Position numbers and translations under genes: made by a program. The notes under the pieces were generated by a model that did no database searches, was not told the origin of the DNA, and worked only from the letters and a program-made list of their open reading frames with translations. From a virus, in IMG/VR virus record IMGVR_UViG_3300043256_000348, positions 1 through 64,000 of that record: a stretch of 64,000 nucleotides of DNA, one strand, 5' to 3'. This document shows, piece by piece, positions 4,053 through 64,000 of this stretch. Every line of letters begins with the position of its first letter. The first letter of the stretch is position 1.

Positions 4053-4288
4053 AAAGCGGGCCGGACGACAAGTATGTGCCGATGCCTTGGCGGCGAATCT
4101 GCCGGACCCTGGCCCGGGAGTACGGCTTCACGCCGCAGCAGGTGGGCAAGATGACCACGTACCAGATTCGGACGTACATGGCCCCGGAGTCGGACCTGGG
4201 GCCGGGCACGTTCCGCGTCTCGGCCGAAGAGTCGGCGGCGGCGTCCGCCCGAATCCAAGAGAGCCACAGACTGCGAGGATTGACCTGA
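4034..4288 (+). CDS. Frameshift extension of the tail assembly chaperone (gpGT-like C-terminus)
   Basis: -1 frame LDWPAVESG...EYGFTPQQVGKMTTYQI, typical gpT-like motif. Confidence 0.7.
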   Translation, partial: LDWPAVESGPDDKYVPMPWRRICRTLAREYGFTPQQVGKMTTYQIRTYMAPESDLGPGTFRVSAEESAAASARIQESHRLRGLT

Positions 4289-4289
4289 T

Positions 4290-6491
4290 ATGGCCCTGAA
4301 GCTAGGAGAGGCGTTCGCCCTGATCGGCCTGAGGACCGGCTCGTTCGACGCCGGGCTGAAGAGGGTCCAGGCGTCGTTCCAGATGGGCATCAGGCGCATG
4401 GAGGCGGTCGCCGCGAAGGCCAGGATGGGGCTGTTGCTAGCCGGCGGCATGGCCGCGGTCGCAGTCAAAGCAGCCGCTGGCTTCGAGCAGGGCATGGCCC
4501 GCGTCGCTGCCTTGACCAGCGCGACGGGAGCCGAGTTCGACGCGCTGAAGCAGAAGGCGAAGGACCTGGGCCGCACGACGGTGTTCTCGGCCCGGCAGTC
4601 GGCGGAGGCCATGGGCTTCTTCGCTCTAGCCGGCTTCAAGTCCGACAAGATCCTCGCGTCTATGAAGCCGACGCTCGACCTGGCCGCGGCCGGGCAGTTG
4701 GACGTGGCTCAGGCTGCGGACATCGCCGCCAAGATTATGGCCGGCATGAAGCTGAGCGCGAGCGAGCTGACCCATACGGTGGACGTGCTGGCCAAGGCGT
4801 TCACCACCAGCAACACGGACCTGGTGCAGCTCGGCGAGGCCATGAGGCACGTCGGGCCGGTCGGCAAAGCGTCCGGCAAGAAGATCGAAGAGCTGGTCGC
4901 CACGATCCAGGTGATGAGCAACGCGGGCATCCAGGGCGCGTCGGCCGGCATGGCGCTGCGCAACATGCTGATCCGGCTCCAGGCCCAGCCGAGCGAGGTG
5001 AAGAAGGCGCTCAAGCTGCTCGGTGTCGAGATCGCCGACGAGTCGGGGAAGATGAAGCACCTCGGGCAGGTCGTCAACGAGGTCAAGGCGGGCCTCCAGA
5101 AGTACACGCTGACGGAGCAGCAGGCGATCATAGCCGCGTTGGCCGGGACCCGCGCGATGGCGGCGTTCAGCGCGATGATGAGCGAGGGGGGCGACGCGAT
5201 CCGCGAGATGGAGAGGCGGCTCCAGGACGCGGGCGGCACAGCCAAGCGGATTGCGGACATACAACTGAACACGTTCCAGGGGCGTCTGACGATACTGAAG
5301 TCGGCGGCCGAGGGGCTGGCGATCACGATCGGCGAGCAGCTTCTGCCGCCGCTGCGGAAGCTGGTCAACCGGATCACGAAGTGGACGAGCGTGTTGGCCG
5401 AGAGCGGCGAGGGCGCCGTGTCGCACGCCCTCGGCATCGCCAAGGTGATCGTCCAGTACGGGATACTGCTCCTGATTATGCCGAAAATCCTCGGGGCCAT
5501 GTCGGCATTGATGGGGCTGACGGCAGCGGGGGGCGCCTTGGCGCTGGGCCTGACAGCGATCGCGGGGATGCTCGGCATGTACGCAATGGCGGCGGCGTCT
5601 GCGGCCGCGTCAGGGAAGGATTTCAATGAGGTCCTGTACGAGCAGCTCACGAACATGACGGGGCTGCGCAACCGATTCAAGGAAATGAGGGAGGAGCAGG
5701 CAAAGCAGGTTGCCGCGACAAAAGATCTGCACAAGATGCAGACGACGGAGACCAAGGGCGGGGAAGCGGCCGCAGACCAATGGTTCGATGAGGTTAAAGC
5801 CCAAGAGGAGCGAGTTAAGGCATCGCAGAAAGTAGTGTCCCAGCGGCGGAAAGACTTGGAGCAATTTGAGAAAAGAAAGGCAGCCGAGGGATTCTTCGCG
5901 AGGGGCGCAAAGTGGCGAGGGGAAGAGCGTGCCCTGAAAGATGAACTCAGGGACGCCTCAGTTCGAGTTCGGGCAGCGGAAGCGGCTTTGGCCGAGGCGC
6001 GGGCCGGGGCAGCCGAGGCCCAAGGAAGAGAGATGCAACGGCAGCTCGTGGAATCACTAGGTCCCCGAACTAAGGACACGAAGTTTGCCAAGCTAATGCA
6101 AACGGTGGCCGAGCAGGAGATGGGCCTGGACGTAGCCCGCGAAGCAAAGCTGGAGGCCGCCCAGCGAAAGCAGTTCGATGCTTTCATGGCGAAGGCCGGT
6201 GGGATGTTGTGGCTCGGCAAAGAGCGGCTAGGAACCATGATGGGGCTACGCGGCATCGGCGGACGGATCGAGGAAGCCGAGGGCCGGGCGAAAGCGGCCC
6301 GACGCACGCCGGAGTTCACGGCCATCGCGGACTTCGCCAAGTCGATCCAGACGCGCATACAGGACAAGAAGGCCATCAACGTGGCCGAGAAGCAATTGGA
6401 GGTACTGAAGAAGCAGCGGGAGATCCAGGAGAAGCGGCTGGTGTCGATCGACGAACAGTTGAAAAAGGGACTCGTGGGGAGGGCTGGCTAA
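4290..6491 (+). CDS. Tail tape measure protein (TP901 family core)
   Basis: FEQGMARVAA, TTVFSARQSAEAM, SNTDLVQLGEAM, GIQGASAGMALR motifs; 733 aa. Confidence 0.92.
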   Translation: MALKLGEAFALIGLRTGSFDAGLKRVQASFQMGIRRMEAVAAKARMGLLLAGGMAAVAVKAAAGFEQGMARVAALTSATGAEFDALKQKAKDLGRTTVFSARQSAEAMGFFALAGFKSDKILASMKPTLDLAAAGQLDVAQAADIAAKIMAGMKLSASELTHTVDVLAKAFTTSNTDLVQLGEAMRHVGPVGKASGKKIEELVATIQVMSNAGIQGASAGMALRNMLIRLQAQPSEVKKALKLLGVEIADESGKMKHLGQVVNEVKAGLQKYTLTEQQAIIAALAGTRAMAAFSAMMSEGGDAIREMERRLQDAGGTAKRIADIQLNTFQGRLTILKSAAEGLAITIGEQLLPPLRKLVNRITKWTSVLAESGEGAVSHALGIAKVIVQYGILLLIMPKILGAMSALMGLTAAGGALALGLTAIAGMLGMYAMAAASAAASGKDFNEVLYEQLTNMTGLRNRFKEMREEQAKQVAATKDLHKMQTTETKGGEAAADQWFDEVKAQEERVKASQKVVSQRRKDLEQFEKRKAAEGFFARGAKWRGEERALKDELRDASVRVRAAEAALAEARAGAAEAQGREMQRQLVESLGPRTKDTKFAKLMQTVAEQEMGLDVAREAKLEAAQRKQFDAFMAKAGGMLWLGKERLGTMMGLRGIGGRIEEAEGRAKAARRTPEFTAIADFAKSIQTRIQDKKAINVAEKQLEVLKKQREIQEKRLVSIDEQLKKGLVGRAG

Positions 6492-40796: not shown

Positions 40797-41372
40797 CTAA
40801 AGCAGCCTCTCCCATCGCTGCTTCCGGGACTTGGTCTGTGGCGGGGCAGTTGCTCGTGTCTTGCGATTTACGTTACTAAACCGCTGGGGCCTTGCGTTGA
40901 CGATCTCCCCACCGGGTTTCCATCCGGCGGCCTTGTATATCGTGCCTGAATGTACGTCAACAGCCAAGTAGCTTACCGCCCGATTAAGGAACGGCCATTT
41001 CCGCTTAACGAGTTTCGCCATCACGGCAAGCATCCGGGAAGCCGTGTTCTTCGGGGCATCATCGCAAATCGCCAACCGTCGCAACTCGATAGTCTTCCCA
41101 TCGCACATCGCCCGGATAATCGGCTGGGACCATATCGCCACCGCGTAATAGTTCCCGCCGTGCTCGGCTGCGTACGCCACGCTCGTGTGGCCACAAAGCA
41201 GATTGCCAAGATCGGTCTTCGGGAGCATGCTGTGCCACTTCATGTTCAGCTCGCGTGCCCGGCGCATACCGATTTCGACAATGTCAAACTGAAGCGGCGA
41301 GGTCGGAATCGAACCGCCCGTTTCCGCTTGGAAGAGCGGAAGTGCTGCCTCTACACTATCGCCGCGTACCAT
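40797..41372 (-). CDS. Mom-like DNA adenine-modifying acetyltransferase (GNAT)
   Basis: GGSIPTSPLQ, IELRRL...APKNTASR, VSY...HSGTIYKAAGW. Confidence 0.75.
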   Translation of the reverse strand: MVRGDSVEAALPLFQAETGGSIPTSPLQFDIVEIGMRRARELNMKWHSMLPKTDLGNLLCGHTSVAYAAEHGGNYYAVAIWSQPIIRAMCDGKTIELRRLAICDDAPKNTASRMLAVMAKLVKRKWPFLNRAVSYLAVDVHSGTIYKAAGWKPGGEIVNARPQRFSNVNRKTRATAPPQTKSRKQRWERLL

Positions 41373-61168: not shown

Positions 61169-61193
61169 ACATGAGCTGGCCGAGAATCTGCTA

Positions 61194-61222
61194 TTTACGG
61201 CTCCCGGGAAAGACGGTATAAT
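61194..61222 (+). promoter_or_regulatory. Sigma70-type promoter TTTACG-17-TATAAT
   Basis: CTATTTACG...GGTATAAT; followed 7 nt later by ATG ACA TCC ACA TGA mini-ORF. Confidence 0.6.
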
Positions 61223-61438
61223 CGGCAGCATGACATCCACATGAGACAAAAAGACGGGCCCGACCTGACGGCCGAGCCCTGAGTGGCCGGCGGCGGAACG
61301 AACGCCGGGCGGCCAGCCACGAAAGCAGGATGGGTGCAACCGTGACTCTAACAGTCAGTATACCAGAAATCCCCTTGGCAGCAAGGCCCATTCGGGCGGG
61401 TACTTTTCAGACGACTCCCCCGATCTTCGGACCGGGTT

Positions 61439-61468
61439 GGGCCGGCCTATATGACCGGCTCTTTTTTT
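61439..61468 (+). terminator. Rho-independent terminator
   Basis: GGGCCGG-N9-CCGGCTC followed by T7. Confidence 0.65.
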
Positions 61469-61660
61469 ACTCCACGGATACAGTCGTTCCCGCTGGGCCG
61501 TCCCCGATCTATTCGGCGGTGGCCCTTTTCTATGCGCCCGGGGCCGGAACAGCGTACACGGGGGGTCGCGTCCCCGCCGGCCCTCTCGGCGGTTGGCAAC
61601 AGCGGCAAGAGACCCGCCCGCGACGGACGCGGCCAGCCGCCCTGACCTTCCTGTTGTGGA

Positions 61661-61806
61661 TGTGCGGCGGCGGCGTGGCAGCGCCGGGTAAGGGGTTGTC
61701 TTTAGTGACAGCCTGTGGAGGGAAGATTGAAAGCGATACGCCTACTGCCAAAGTCACTAAGAGTATCGCACCATGGAGCCGGGTGGGGAATCCGGCCCGC
61801 CGTGCA
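61661..61806 (+). ncRNA. Cloverleaf/tRNA-like structured RNA, copy 1 (C4/CI-antisense-like candidate)
   Basis: Outer stem TGTGCGGCGG/CCGCCGTGCA; GGCGT/ACGCC arm; GCCGG-loop-CCGGC arm; 23/24 match to 63908-63931. Confidence 0.55.
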
Positions 61807-62231
61807 CTTTTCACCCCGCCAGCGTACAGCAGGACTCGCGACCTGCCGGGGTGCTTGCCGGCTCTGCGTGGAGAACCCACGATCGTTGCCGAAGACATAG
61901 CCCCGAATACATGGGCAAGGGAATGGTATCCCGACGCGGCTCACGACTCAGTGGCCCGGAAGCATCTTAGGTAGGCGTAAGCCAGACGGATGCAATACTG
62001 AGACAGTTCGCAGTTTGGCGGCTTCGATCAGGTCGCATCCGCTGCGGAGGTCGAACGGCAGGCCGCAACGCTGGGACAGCGCAGCGAATCGCCTGGGTCG
62101 GCACACTGGAGGTGACCTTGGCATGGAGATTTTCTGCTTTGCCCTGCCGGAAGACGGAGTAAAATGGATGGCCGGGCGGCACGTCGAAAGGCTAGCGATG
62201 GTGCGACGTAAAATCCAGTCCGGCATCGGGG

Positions 62232-62286
62232 ATTCTGTGCGTGCTACCGCGTCGCCCGTAGGGTGACGCGGTAGCAGGTACAGAAT
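62232..62286. repeat. Long inverted repeat (about 26-bp stem, 3-nt loop)
   Basis: ATTCTGTGC-G-TGCTACCGCGTCGCCC GTA GGGTGACGCGGTAGCA-G-GTACAGAAT. Confidence 0.8.
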
Positions 62287-62320
62287 ACAACAGTTCTTCA
62301 GTTGTCAGGACGAACGAACC

Positions 62321-62515
62321 ATGAGCGTATCGAAACGGCGATACTACGAGTCTACGATCCGCAGCACGGGATTCGTGACTGAGCGGCTGGTGGAAGAGAC
62401 CGGGATGGCTCCCGAAGCACTTGACGAGGTAATCAGCGGCTACTTCGCTGAGGTAACTGCCGGGGCGGAGCGTGAACCTGGACTGCCGCCGGCCGCCTTC
62501 GGGTCGGACGTGTAG
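62321..62515 (+). CDS. Small hypothetical protein
   Basis: 64 aa ORF after hairpin. Confidence 0.45.
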   Translation: MSVSKRRYYESTIRSTGFVTERLVEETGMAPEALDEVISGYFAEVTAGAEREPGLPPAAFGSDV

Positions 62516-62540
62516 CTTGACCTATTCCAAGAGGGCAGCG

Positions 62541-62768
62541 ATGGACGATGACCAGCCGGGTGCGCAGGCGACCTTAGAGGAAAAACTGTGCTGGATCGAC
62601 CGGCACCGGCCACCGCCGTACAAGCCGCCGCACTCCGGATCGTGCGACTTGCAGGACGTGGTGATGTCGAGCCGGGAGAAGGGCGGCAAGCCGGACCCGA
62701 ACGGGAAGTGGATTCGCCGGAGCTGCCGGCTGTGCGGGCGGTTCCACAGCTACCGGAGGCGGGCATGA
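62541..62768 (+). CDS. Small zinc-finger-like protein
   Basis: RBS GAGGG; CRLCGRFHSY; ATGA-coupled to primase. Confidence 0.5.
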   Translation: MDDDQPGAQATLEEKLCWIDRHRPPPYKPPHSGSCDLQDVVMSSREKGGKPDPNGKWIRRSCRLCGRFHSYRRRA

Positions 62769-63679
62769 CGAACACCGCGTGGGTACGGGTATCGAAGGCC
62801 GAGCCTTGCGTCATTTGTGAGCGACCAGATTGGTGTCGCGTCTCAGCTTGTGGAGGGACGGCCCATTGTATGAGGCGGGAAAGTGACAGGAAGTGGCCAG
62901 GCCCGGCTGGCGGTTTTCTTCACCGGCTGAATGGTGAGCAGGTAAGGGCTGTGCAGAGAACGCCAGCGAAGGCGACAAAACCGAAAAAGCCCGTCGCCTA
63001 CTGGACCGCGGTAGCGAAGCGGTGCTACGAGCACCCTGAGGCGACCGGCATGCGCGAGTACGTCGCGGAGGTTCTCGGGTTGTCGGTCGACGTGGTGAAG
63101 CGGTTCCGTGTCGGCTGGGGCGACGACAGGTACCGCGGCCTGGACTACTCGACGTGGCCGTCGCGGGACGCCGCGGGGAGGATCGTCGGGATCACGCGGC
63201 GGTACAGGGACGGGGCGAAGCTGACGGCCGAGGGCGGGACACCAGGACTGTTCTACTGTTATGGCTGGCACAGGCTGTCCGGGACGATCCTACTGCCGGA
63301 GGGGGCTTCTGACACGGCAACCCTGGTACAATTAGGATTGTCGGCGGTCGGTCGGCCGAGCAACGTGTCGGCGCCGTGGCTACCTGAGTTGCTGGGGCCG
63401 TACCGGGAACGGGAGATTATTGTGCTAGGCGAGCACGACAGAAAAGAACCGGGCGTGCGACCGGGGTGCCGTGTGGACTGCCGGGGCTGCTCGGCGTGCT
63501 GGCCAGGTCGTTTCGGGGCGGAGGCGGTCGCCCGGCTGTTGGCGGAACAGTTGAAACGCTCTGTCACTTGGTGGATCCTGTCGGTGAAAGATGTGCGCGT
63601 GTGGCTCGCCGAGAACGACGGAGCAGTGGACGTGAGGCTGGAGGACTTCGAGCCGGCGATGGTCGGTACAGTTCGGTAG
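62765..63679 (+). CDS. DNA primase-like protein (Zn finger + TOPRIM)
   Basis: CVICERPDWC...HCMR; GRIVGITRR; LPEGASDT...LGLSAVGRPS; IIVLGEHD. Confidence 0.8.
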   Translation: MTNTAWVRVSKAEPCVICERPDWCRVSACGGTAHCMRRESDRKWPGPAGGFLHRLNGEQVRAVQRTPAKATKPKKPVAYWTAVAKRCYEHPEATGMREYVAEVLGLSVDVVKRFRVGWGDDRYRGLDYSTWPSRDAAGRIVGITRRYRDGAKLTAEGGTPGLFYCYGWHRLSGTILLPEGASDTATLVQLGLSAVGRPSNVSAPWLPELLGPYREREIIVLGEHDRKEPGVRPGCRVDCRGCSACWPGRFGAEAVARLLAEQLKRSVTWWILSVKDVRVWLAENDGAVDVRLEDFEPAMVGTVR

Positions 63680-63682
63680 ACA

Positions 63683-63762
63683 AGCACGGCGGCGGCCTGG
63701 CGAACCAGGACGTTAAATGGCCCCGCGCCATAGAAGCCGGGGGAGAACCGGCCCGCCGTGTT
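63683..63762 (+). ncRNA. Cloverleaf/tRNA-like structured RNA, copy 2
   Basis: AGCACGGCGG/CCGCCGTGTT closing stem; CCTGG-CGAA-CCAGG; TGGC/GCCA; GCCGG-7-CCGGC. Confidence 0.6.
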
Positions 63763-63784
63763 TTTCAGAAAGGAAAACGAGAAG

Positions 63785-63901
63785 GTGTCAAACAGCAAAG
63801 GCAGTAAGGAAAGGTGCTCAGTCTGTGGGTTACGCAAGCGCGGGTCGAATCATAATAACGGGCAACATCACAAAAAGGCCCTAATGAAACAGAAAGGATA
63901 G
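63785..63901 (+). CDS. 38-aa basic CCHH zinc-finger peptide (absent from ORF track)
   Basis: GTG SNSKGSKERCSVCGLRKRGSNHNNGQHHKKALMKQKG TAG. Confidence 0.5.
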   Translation: MSNSKGSKERCSVCGLRKRGSNHNNGQHHKKALMKQKG

Positions 63902-63903
63902 AC

Positions 63904-64000
63904 AGCACGGCGGCGGCGTGGCAGCGTCGGGCGACTGGTCACACGTATCCGAGAACTGGCTGACCAACAGCGGAGAAGGTGACTTTTAGTGGAGCCGGTG
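63904..64000 (+). ncRNA. Cloverleaf RNA, copy 3 (truncated by window end)
   Basis: AGCACGGCGGCGGCGTGG...ACACGT; ends in GAGCCGGTG, the start of the conserved last arm. Confidence 0.5.

Follow-up and report, generated by a model that had tools for sequence, protein, structure and literature searches.

The DNA analysed here is a 64,000-nucleotide stretch (the window: bases 1-64000) of IMG/VR record IMGVR_UViG_3300043256_000348. The whole record measures 92,947 bp and is a complete genome, with direct terminal repeats at both ends and a GC content of 61%; Pfam matches to a tape-measure-like minor tail protein, helicases and ThyX indicate a tailed phage. At its right edge the window holds three copies of an RNA element resembling a tRNA cloverleaf, each with a constant frame and a variable interior. 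The first copy lies in a leader poor in open reading frames (ORFs), which is followed by two small ORFs, a primase-like gene, the second copy, a 38-aa ORF and the third copy; the order continues with a 65-aa ORF, a reduced fourth copy, a 33-aa ORF and thyX. As the copies lie at the edge of the window, the sequence was read on beyond position 64000. We call the source phage genome G000 and its copies c1 to c4, while other contigs and loci carry G or L numbers. Copy coordinates are those of the 8-bp closing helix, and scores are those of a covariance model (CM) described below:

61663-61804, + strand: c1, 142 nt (CM score 40 bits, E 1.5e-4); closing helix 61663-61670 with 61797-61804, D-like hairpin 61671-61686 (6 bp, loop GGCA), variable centre, T-like hairpin 61778-61796; T4 at 61808-61811
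63685-63760, + strand: c2, 76 nt, the smallest complete cloverleaf (51 bits, E 1.3e-6); closing helix 63685-63692 with 63753-63760, hairpin 63696-63709, central hairpin 63717-63731 (5 bp, 5-nt loop), T-like hairpin 63736-63752 (loop GGGAGAA)
63761-63787, + strand: junction 3' of c2, with U5, a ribosome-binding region CAGAAAGGAAAAC and a GTG start
63906-64021, + strand: c3, cut by the window at 64000 (43.7 bits); D-like hairpin 63914-63929, T-like hairpin 63994-64013, 3' strand 64014-64021, U5 at 64022-64026
64243-64285, + strand: c4, the reduced fourth copy beyond the window (19.3 bits, E 0.88)

A first-pass annotation of the window had described a frame common to three copies. Exact matches bear this out: in the window, the 5' 15-mer CGGCGGCGGCSTGGC occurs only at c1, c2 and c3, and the 3' 13-mer CCGGCCCGCCGTG only at 61792 and 63748. 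The annotation had further predicted that the 3' arm of the third copy would lie just past the window and that more copies might follow. Indeed, CCGGCCCGCCGTG recurs at 64009-64021, and c4 has lost the T-arm-like hairpin but still shows closing helix, GCGTGG block and U-run. Across the whole 92,947-bp genome, the covariance model built from relatives matches exactly these four copies. TAG stops of same-strand ORFs precede c2 and c3 by 5 and 4 nt, as the annotation had seen, and c4 by 3 nt. T4-5 adjoins c2, c3 and c4 directly, and in each case an AAAGG/AAGGAG ribosome site then precedes the next start codon; c1 is followed by CAC and then T4. Minimum free energy (MFE) folds give two or three hairpins enclosed by a long closing helix, and in c2, c3 and c4 a GC-rich stem of 9-11 bp runs directly into U4-5.

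TTC loop, 7-nt anticodon loop and CCA are missing from all of c1 to c4, in agreement with the first reading of the three window copies, and the T-like loops of those three copies (GUGGGGAAU, GGGAGAA and UGUGGGGAAU) have drifted from the canonical form. ARAGORN called neither tRNA nor transfer-messenger RNA (tmRNA) on the copies, and Rfam searches of the window and of the related loci returned nothing relevant at the copies, at gathering thresholds or at E<=10.

Relatives were sought in IMG/VR by pattern scans. Scans with either block alone gave mainly chance matches in GC-rich coding DNA, and some of the contigs that they returned carried the 5' and 3' blocks in register. Patterns combining both blocks were specific, yet about 40% of their matches were coding false positives, which we discarded by inspection. 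The curated family comprises 31 elements, plus two found later with the covariance model, in about 18 distinct viral contigs; genomes carry 2-4 copies, and the elements span 43-176 nt. Among these contigs the source phage has a single close relative, G002 (30 kb; 65-82% nucleotide identity over 58-77 kb), and the remaining contigs have no DNA detectably in common with that phage except the element. Clustering of neighbouring ORFs from 17 contig groups (20 loci) revealed no protein common to more than two contigs, and therefore no conserved protein partner nearby. The GenBank cultured-phage collection yielded no family member. A scan of genome contigs for a canonical T-arm joined to the 3' strand likewise gave no strict family member and no Planctomycete, and returned Bathyarchaeota tRNA-Leu genes and actinobacterial loci instead.

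Two kinds of non-viral loci resemble the family. In a metagenome-assembled genome of Clostridiales, about 120 nt just 3' of a TAA (L234, ~4170-4297, +) read GCGGCGG, a canonical T-arm and CCGCCGC, possibly an analogous element in another phylum. The actinobacterial loci (L235, L242, L249, L258, L265 and others, from Nonomuraea and Streptomyces) are chromosomal and consist of CCGGTTCGAATCCGGCCCGCCGC, a short loop and GCGGCGG; by eye, the stems have the family's sequences but are permuted into a YrlA-like topology, and a conserved gene lies upstream.

The frame common to the family has five parts. It opens with a helix, N-CGGCGG pairing with CCGCCG-N', and continues with a short linker. In 29 of 31 members at least one extra flanking pair extends this helix (13 extra pairs in L210), so that it is effectively at least 8 bp long. 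Next comes a hairpin resembling a D-arm, usually GCGUG, a GG-containing loop and CACGC; in 22 of 31 members the D-like stem has at least 5 bp and begins directly behind the 5' strand, and in c1, c3, G003b and L223 the hairpin takes the form CGGCGU-GGCA-GCGYCG (6 bp, 4-nt loop). The fourth part is a variable centre of 0-110 nt. Finally, a 5-bp hairpin, GCCGG-loop-CCGGC, adjoins the 3' strand without a linker, in the fashion of a T-arm. Its stem geometry is present in all complete copies; the loop, canonical (TTCGATT, TTCGACT or TTCGAAT) in eight relatives, has degenerated in those of the window, the eight being G002a, L192, G001b, G004a, both elements of L217, L213 and L224. One member, G004a, aligned at full length to the Rfam selenocysteine tRNA model (tRNA-Sec, RF01852), at a sub-threshold 26.1 bits against a gathering score of 47 (E 0.21); no other member matched it. 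An ARAGORN partial tRNA-Gly call in L192 was rejected as spurious. Some relatives contain a second, inner T-arm-like hairpin (GCGG-TTCGATT-CCGC) within the centre, as in L213:4782-4899 (-) and L217:9342-9596 (+), and in L217 two elements stand in tandem, 6 nt apart.

For the covariance model, ten members were used and only the closing helix and T-stem were annotated. The search space was 463 kb, made up of all of G000, G002, G003 and G004, most of G001 and other loci. The model regained every known member and added two divergent ones, L217:9342-9484 and L213:4249-4315, whose acceptor sequences differ yet pair (GCACCGG/CCGGUGC and GCGACUG/CAGUCGC). In the alignment made by the model, with 33 distinct members, 98.7% of the cells pair, and both sides change in 9 of 13 pairs. 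The observed covariation value was reached by 0 of 500 shuffles, and pairing fell to 31-52% when the partner was slid by 1-3 columns. Although positions 3-14 and the eleven bases at the 3' end were fixed by exact search patterns, the two outermost pairs lie outside these patterns and are thus free of ascertainment; one is CG 18, UA 5, GC 3, UG 3, AU 2 and GU 1, the other AU 17, GC 11, UA 3 and GU 1. Compensatory T-stem variants (GCAGG/CCUGC in G004a, GCCAG/CUGGC in L226) add to this. G·U pairs occur at pair 1-72 of c1, in G003a, c4 and G002c and in GUCGG T-stems, and would be A·C mismatches on the opposite strand. Since these pair only on the + strand and every copy is oriented with its flanking genes, the constraint acts on the sense transcript. 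As far as sequence and fold can tell, then, the elements are non-decoding and descended from tRNA. The annotation's idea of a scaffold mimicking tRNA is supported by the canonical T-loops, the D-like hairpin and the covariation in relatives.

Members differ in what follows the helix. Where pair 1-72 is of the A-U type, which includes the window copies, U4-6 lies within 2 nt of the helix in 15 of 19 cases; where it is of the G-C type this holds for 0 of 8, and the frame is retained without a U-run. Over all pair types, 17 of 31 members have a U-run and 14 have none. With pair types pooled in the same way, AAAGG is found within 40 nt downstream in 11 of the 17 members with a U-run, from several phages, versus 1 of the 14 without. 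Placement is also recurrent: about 15 of 33 members start no more than 9 nt after a same-strand stop, and most have a start codon 5-45 nt downstream.

The other half of the annotation's proposal, that the scaffold displays guide or antisense segments in the manner of an expanded C4 system, fared less well. The centres do differ wholly, as it had stated; they are unalignable even between c1 and its nearest homologue, L223, and nearly absent in c4 and L134. Their folding energy is indistinguishable from that of dinucleotide shuffles (z -0.2 to -1.6), and against the remainder of the phage genome their longest complementary stretch measures 9-11 nt, compared with a shuffled mean of 11-11.5 and a maximum of 13-14. 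With neither excess structure nor excess complementarity to the phage genome, guide display is unsupported. The complementary 8-mers that had been pointed out, AAAGTCAC in c1 and GTGACTTT in c3, are present; such a pair arises in about 5% of shuffled interiors (p ~0.05), and each 8-mer is paired within its own element in the MFE fold, so that intramolecular stems explain the match.

The neighbourhood of the copies contains the following further features:

61170-62320: leader, 1.1 kb, poor in ORFs
61215-61222, + strand: GGTATAAT, a -10-like motif heading the leader that holds c1; a putative promoter
61440-61468, in the leader: plain terminator, a simple hairpin followed by T7
61588-61641, in the leader: conserved hairpin, GGCGGTTGGC...GCCAGCCGCC
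62765-63679, + strand: upstream cistron, the primase-like gene, whose TAG ends 5 nt before c2
63785-63901, + strand: the 38-aa ORF between c2 and c3, Cys/His-rich, whose TAG ends 4 nt before c3
11009, 12722, 31854, 46348, 55993 and 61215 on the + strand, 10277, 40780 and 45574 on the - strand: sites of GGTATAAT

With nine copies in the 93-kb genome against roughly one expected (a rough estimate), located upstream of gene starts and some of them with CTATTAGA-like boxes upstream, GGTATAAT is probably the -10 element of the phage's early or middle promoters. The site at 61215 is the last on the + strand, with none downstream; thyX and the genes after it therefore appear to need read-through of c2 to c4. 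The leader is partly conserved with G002 (72-82% nucleotide identity). Its hairpin at 61588-61641 reads GGCGGCCAGC...GCTGGCCGCC in G002, two compensatory changes that preserve the pairing, and its terminator at 61440-61468 could release an RNA of about 240 nt. The primase-like gene was so labelled by eye from a Cys-rich N-terminal stretch; it has no Pfam hit, and the name is a label only. Its homologue in G002 is 65-69% identical and has an element before it and none after it, and a search for related loci with the protein as query gave no relative. The ORFs between and after the elements (genome positions 63785-64406) are tiny, the 38-aa and 65-aa products being Cys/His-rich and the 33-aa product very acidic.

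Comparison of G000 with G002 points to turnover at the elements. The G002 leader, orthologous and otherwise collinear, lacks c1 and passes from the conserved hairpin directly into ACTATTTTT, whereas in G000 23 nt and c1 separate the hairpin from the T-run. Conversely, two genes that adjoin each other in G000 are separated in G002 by four elements in alternation with three small ORFs; each of these elements starts 0-8 nt after a stop, and a U-run, an AAAGG-type site and a start codon come next. One cassette ORF of G002 carries a motif possibly reminiscent of DUF3820. Behind its primase-like gene, G000 carries three elements and as many small ORFs (38, 65 and 33 aa), and the roughly 6 kb that hold its elements and small ORFs correspond to about 640 nt in G002. 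Because the two genomes differ reciprocally, the elements mark sites where small-gene cassettes are gained and lost. In G003, a bona fide tRNA-Met without CCA (L122:2300-2373, -) precedes a co-oriented element (L122:2170-2291, -) by 9 nt, so that elements can occupy tRNA gene contexts. The tRNA genes of these phages are themselves CCA-less, and the trailer of the G003 tRNA-Met begins UUUG. Elsewhere in G000, at 41293-41365 (-), a tRNA-like gene combines well-formed acceptor, D and T arms with an anticodon loop of 8 nt, UCUUCCAA, and encodes no CCA; ARAGORN labels it 'tRNA-???', and it could be a frameshift-type or otherwise aberrant tRNA.

Taken together, we favour a reading in which the elements are cis-acting, tRNA-like punctuation and leaky-terminator modules at cistron boundaries, analogous to the t-elements of plant mitochondria, and give it a probability of about 0.5. 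The family conserves the coaxial stack of acceptor and T-arm and, in many members, an elbow formed by D and T arms, which is just the portion of a tRNA recognised by RNase P, RNase Z and the CCA-adding enzyme; the variable portion is the one that these enzymes disregard. An unconstrained centre is the pattern predicted for a signal read through the top half only. The copies would be transcribed within a rightward early operon, apparently from the promoter near 61215. Their functional part would be this top half, the 8-bp acceptor-like helix stacked on the 5-bp T-arm-like hairpin, while the centre would be filler at the position of the former anticodon arm. The fold would most probably recruit host RNase P on the 5' side and RNase Z on the 3' side, which would cut the polycistronic message into units; processing by RNase P, already suggested in the first-pass annotation, is plausible. 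In this lineage, the helix and U4-6 would also act as a leaky terminator or as a 3'-end stabiliser for the upstream cistron, and the U-tract with AAAGG would give the next cistron an insulated start region. Cleavage, termination and an effect on expression are what we infer here, and termination is unlikely to be efficient, because the downstream genes have no visible promoter of their own. CCA-less tRNA precursors are substrates of RNase Z. Pellegrini et al. reportedly described in 2012 (Structure 20:1769, cited in PMC4810234) that the RNase Z of B. subtilis is activated by downstream uracils. Non-canonical, tRNA-like t-elements at mRNA ends direct cleavage by RNase P and RNase Z in plant mitochondria (PMC1920247), and a 7-bp acceptor-like stem makes M. 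smegmatis YrlA a substrate of RNase P (PMC4201824).

Several points weigh against this reading. RNase P and RNase Z use the canonical D/T elbow, which the window copies, with their degenerate T-loops, are unable to form. The helix of at least 8 bp has paired flanks, and RNase P does not favour pairing between leader and trailer. A GC-rich stem with a U-tract after it, as found in this lineage, already suffices to describe an intrinsic terminator. Cleavage and discrete RNAs are predicted from sequence and fold. With only 2-4 copies per genome, the elements do not make up a genome-wide punctuation system. Finally, since the scans used exact patterns, conservation of the primary sequence is inflated and partly an artefact.

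One alternative is that the elements are plain intrinsic (Rho-independent) terminators or attenuators with a branched hairpin, whose tRNA likeness reflects ancestry only and involves no processing enzyme. The GC-rich stems of c2, c3 and c4 that run straight into U4-5, the U-runs of 15 of the 19 A-U-type members, the loss of the canonical T-loop in the window copies, and c4 and L134, which are plain hairpins with the same stem base and U-run, all fit this explanation. It does not account for the 14 of 31 members, including all eight of the G-C type, that have no U-run yet keep the acceptor/D/T frame and covary, and it needs neither the linkerless 5-bp hairpin on the 3' strand nor the D-like hairpin. 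Moreover, the genes after c2 to c4 have no recognisable promoter of their own, and the genome's plain terminator at 61440-61468, a simple hairpin with T7, looks different. We consider this explanation rather unlikely. That the elements are instead decaying tRNA pseudogenes (tRNA-Sec-like or type-II, for example) with no present function seems highly improbable: the missing anticodon arm, the degenerate T-loops in the window and the silence of the tRNA finders would be expected of such remnants, but compensatory changes keep the pairing in unrelated phage contigs, about 18 in number, the elements retain their place at cistron boundaries, and 75-175 nt of junk in several copies would be rare in compact phage genomes.

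Other explanations assign a role to the variable centres or to the DNA itself. The elements might be stable tRNA-shaped RNAs excised by RNase P and RNase Z, with a tRNA-Sec-like 8/5 frame and swappable centre payloads aimed at the host; as decoys or guides, these would target RNAs, tRNA-binding enzymes or defence nucleases of the host. We hold this to be quite unlikely, together with a variant in which the terminator would be gated by translation: a ribosome stopped 1-3 nt before the 5' strand would block the closing helix, and read-through would occur only while the upstream cistron is translated. We also regard as improbable a version close to the C4 system of P1 and P7, in which the centres of excised stable small RNAs are trans-acting antisense guides or decoys against host or phage targets. 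A hypervariable centre on a constant scaffold is the pattern expected for display; c1 stands by itself in a leader that is transcribed but non-coding, not downstream of an ORF; and c1 and L223, from an unrelated phage, have the short centre motifs GGGTAAGGG and CTGCCAAA in common. On the other side stand a complementarity to the phage genome at or below the level of shuffled controls, centres that lack excess structure and are dispensable in c4 and L134, and an 8-mer match between c1 and c3 that is of borderline significance and lies in internal stems. At the level of DNA, the elements could be mobile elements or recombination sites that shuffle small-gene cassettes, similar to miniature inverted-repeat transposable elements (MITEs), attC sites or PeSLs, with an incidental RNA fold. 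The presence of c1 and its 23 nt in G000 and their absence at the collinear site in G002, the different sets of elements and small ORFs in the two genomes, the spread of the family over phages with neither other DNA nor neighbouring proteins in common, and the inverted repeat formed by the element ends would agree with mobility. But the genome contains no tyrosine recombinase or reverse transcriptase (transposases and serine recombinases were not searched for), the flanks show no target-site duplications, no identical cassette was found in two contexts, and the G·U pairs and strict co-orientation with transcription argue for a constraint on RNA. Recombination at repeated junctions may be a side effect, and we judge a DNA-level function very improbable.

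Among known RNAs, several identities could be rejected. The elements are not canonical tRNAs: they have no anticodon arm (the central hairpin of c2 has a 5-nt loop), and at the four copies neither ARAGORN nor Rfam, the latter even at E<=10, gave a tRNA match. With tRNA-Sec they share the 8-bp acceptor and 5-bp T-stem and, in the four members with a 6-bp/4-nt hairpin (c1, c3, G003b and L223), the D-arm; they lack a UCA anticodon arm, and the best Rfam score is 26.1 bits against 47. Like tmRNA, they have a large insert in place of the anticodon arm, but there is no ARAGORN call, pair 3-70 is G-C instead of G3:U70, and neither CCA nor a tag ORF is present. A CCA-adding enzyme was not found in the complete genome. 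YrlA Y RNAs occur in some phages, and M. smegmatis YrlA is cut by RNase P and gains CCA (Chen et al. 2014, PMC4201824). They are likewise non-decoding, with a tRNA-like D-arm, T-arm and acceptor-like stem; unlike the elements, they are circularly permuted, with ends at the anticodon side, a loop-closed acceptor and a position next to rsr (Ro60). The elements have their ends at the acceptor helix, in native topology, and the TROVE domain (PF05731) is absent from the genome, so that we rejected this identity as well. Integron attC sites were rejected because the tyrosine recombinase domain PF00589 is absent from the genome and there is no GTTRRRY-type core, and retron non-coding RNAs because the reverse transcriptase domain PF00078 is absent from it. 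Of the features of a MITE, the terminal inverted repeat and the presence or absence of c1 are observed; no target duplication is seen, and a transposase was not searched for. By sequence, c2, c3 and c4 qualify as intrinsic terminators, while c1 has CAC before U4.

According to Hartmann et al. (reportedly, in 1995), the C4 antisense RNA of P1 and P7 is matured from a longer operon transcript by a tRNA-processing enzyme. C4 loops complement targets in the same operon, whereas the elements show no such complementarity (9-11 nt, the level of shuffles). The PeSL cassettes of T4-type phages, said to have been described by Arbiol et al. in 2010 as an early promoter plus a simple hairpin, are also repeated stem-loop regulators that flank small ORFs in hyperplastic early regions and are tied to gene gain and loss; in contrast to them, the elements consist of a fold shaped like a tRNA together with a U-tract and a ribosome site. 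The early mRNA of phage T7 likewise has structured RNA between the cistrons of a polycistronic message. Host RNase III cuts at these intercistronic sites (Dunn and Studier), and protective 3' hairpins remain. The T7 sites differ in being long imperfect duplexes that are not tRNA-shaped and have no homology to the elements.

Rfam 15 contains no model for the family, and a literature search retrieved no description of phage elements that are tRNA-like and intercistronic. Candidates resembling tRNA receive a general mention in a catalogue of some 10,000 putative structured RNAs from viruses (PMC10690425), which may include this family. Because members in about 18 contigs covary and the searches of Rfam 15 and of the literature gave no match, the family is a good candidate for a new RNA family that is apparently uncatalogued. 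The element is also a compact natural part that combines a structured insulator, a U-tract and a ribosome site, and it flags places where small accessory genes come and go in these phages.

The closest comparison is with t-elements and mitochondrial tRNA punctuation, where cleavage by RNase P and RNase Z has been proposed and for some elements shown (Forner et al. 2007, PMC1920247). Both are non-decoding, non-canonical cloverleaves that retain acceptor and T-arm and stand at the ends of mRNAs or cistrons. The phage elements differ in that they lie in early operons of tailed phages, have an 8-bp helix with paired flanks and a very variable, often large centre, and are fused to a U-tract and a ribosome site; their cleavage is proposed by analogy. 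In fold, covariation and location, 1-8 nt downstream of stop codons and 5-45 nt upstream of start codons, they are t-element-like in both structure and position. If our reading is correct, phages of a poorly studied host group would organise early expression by tRNA-derived RNA modules, a bacterial-virus counterpart to mitochondrial tRNA punctuation.

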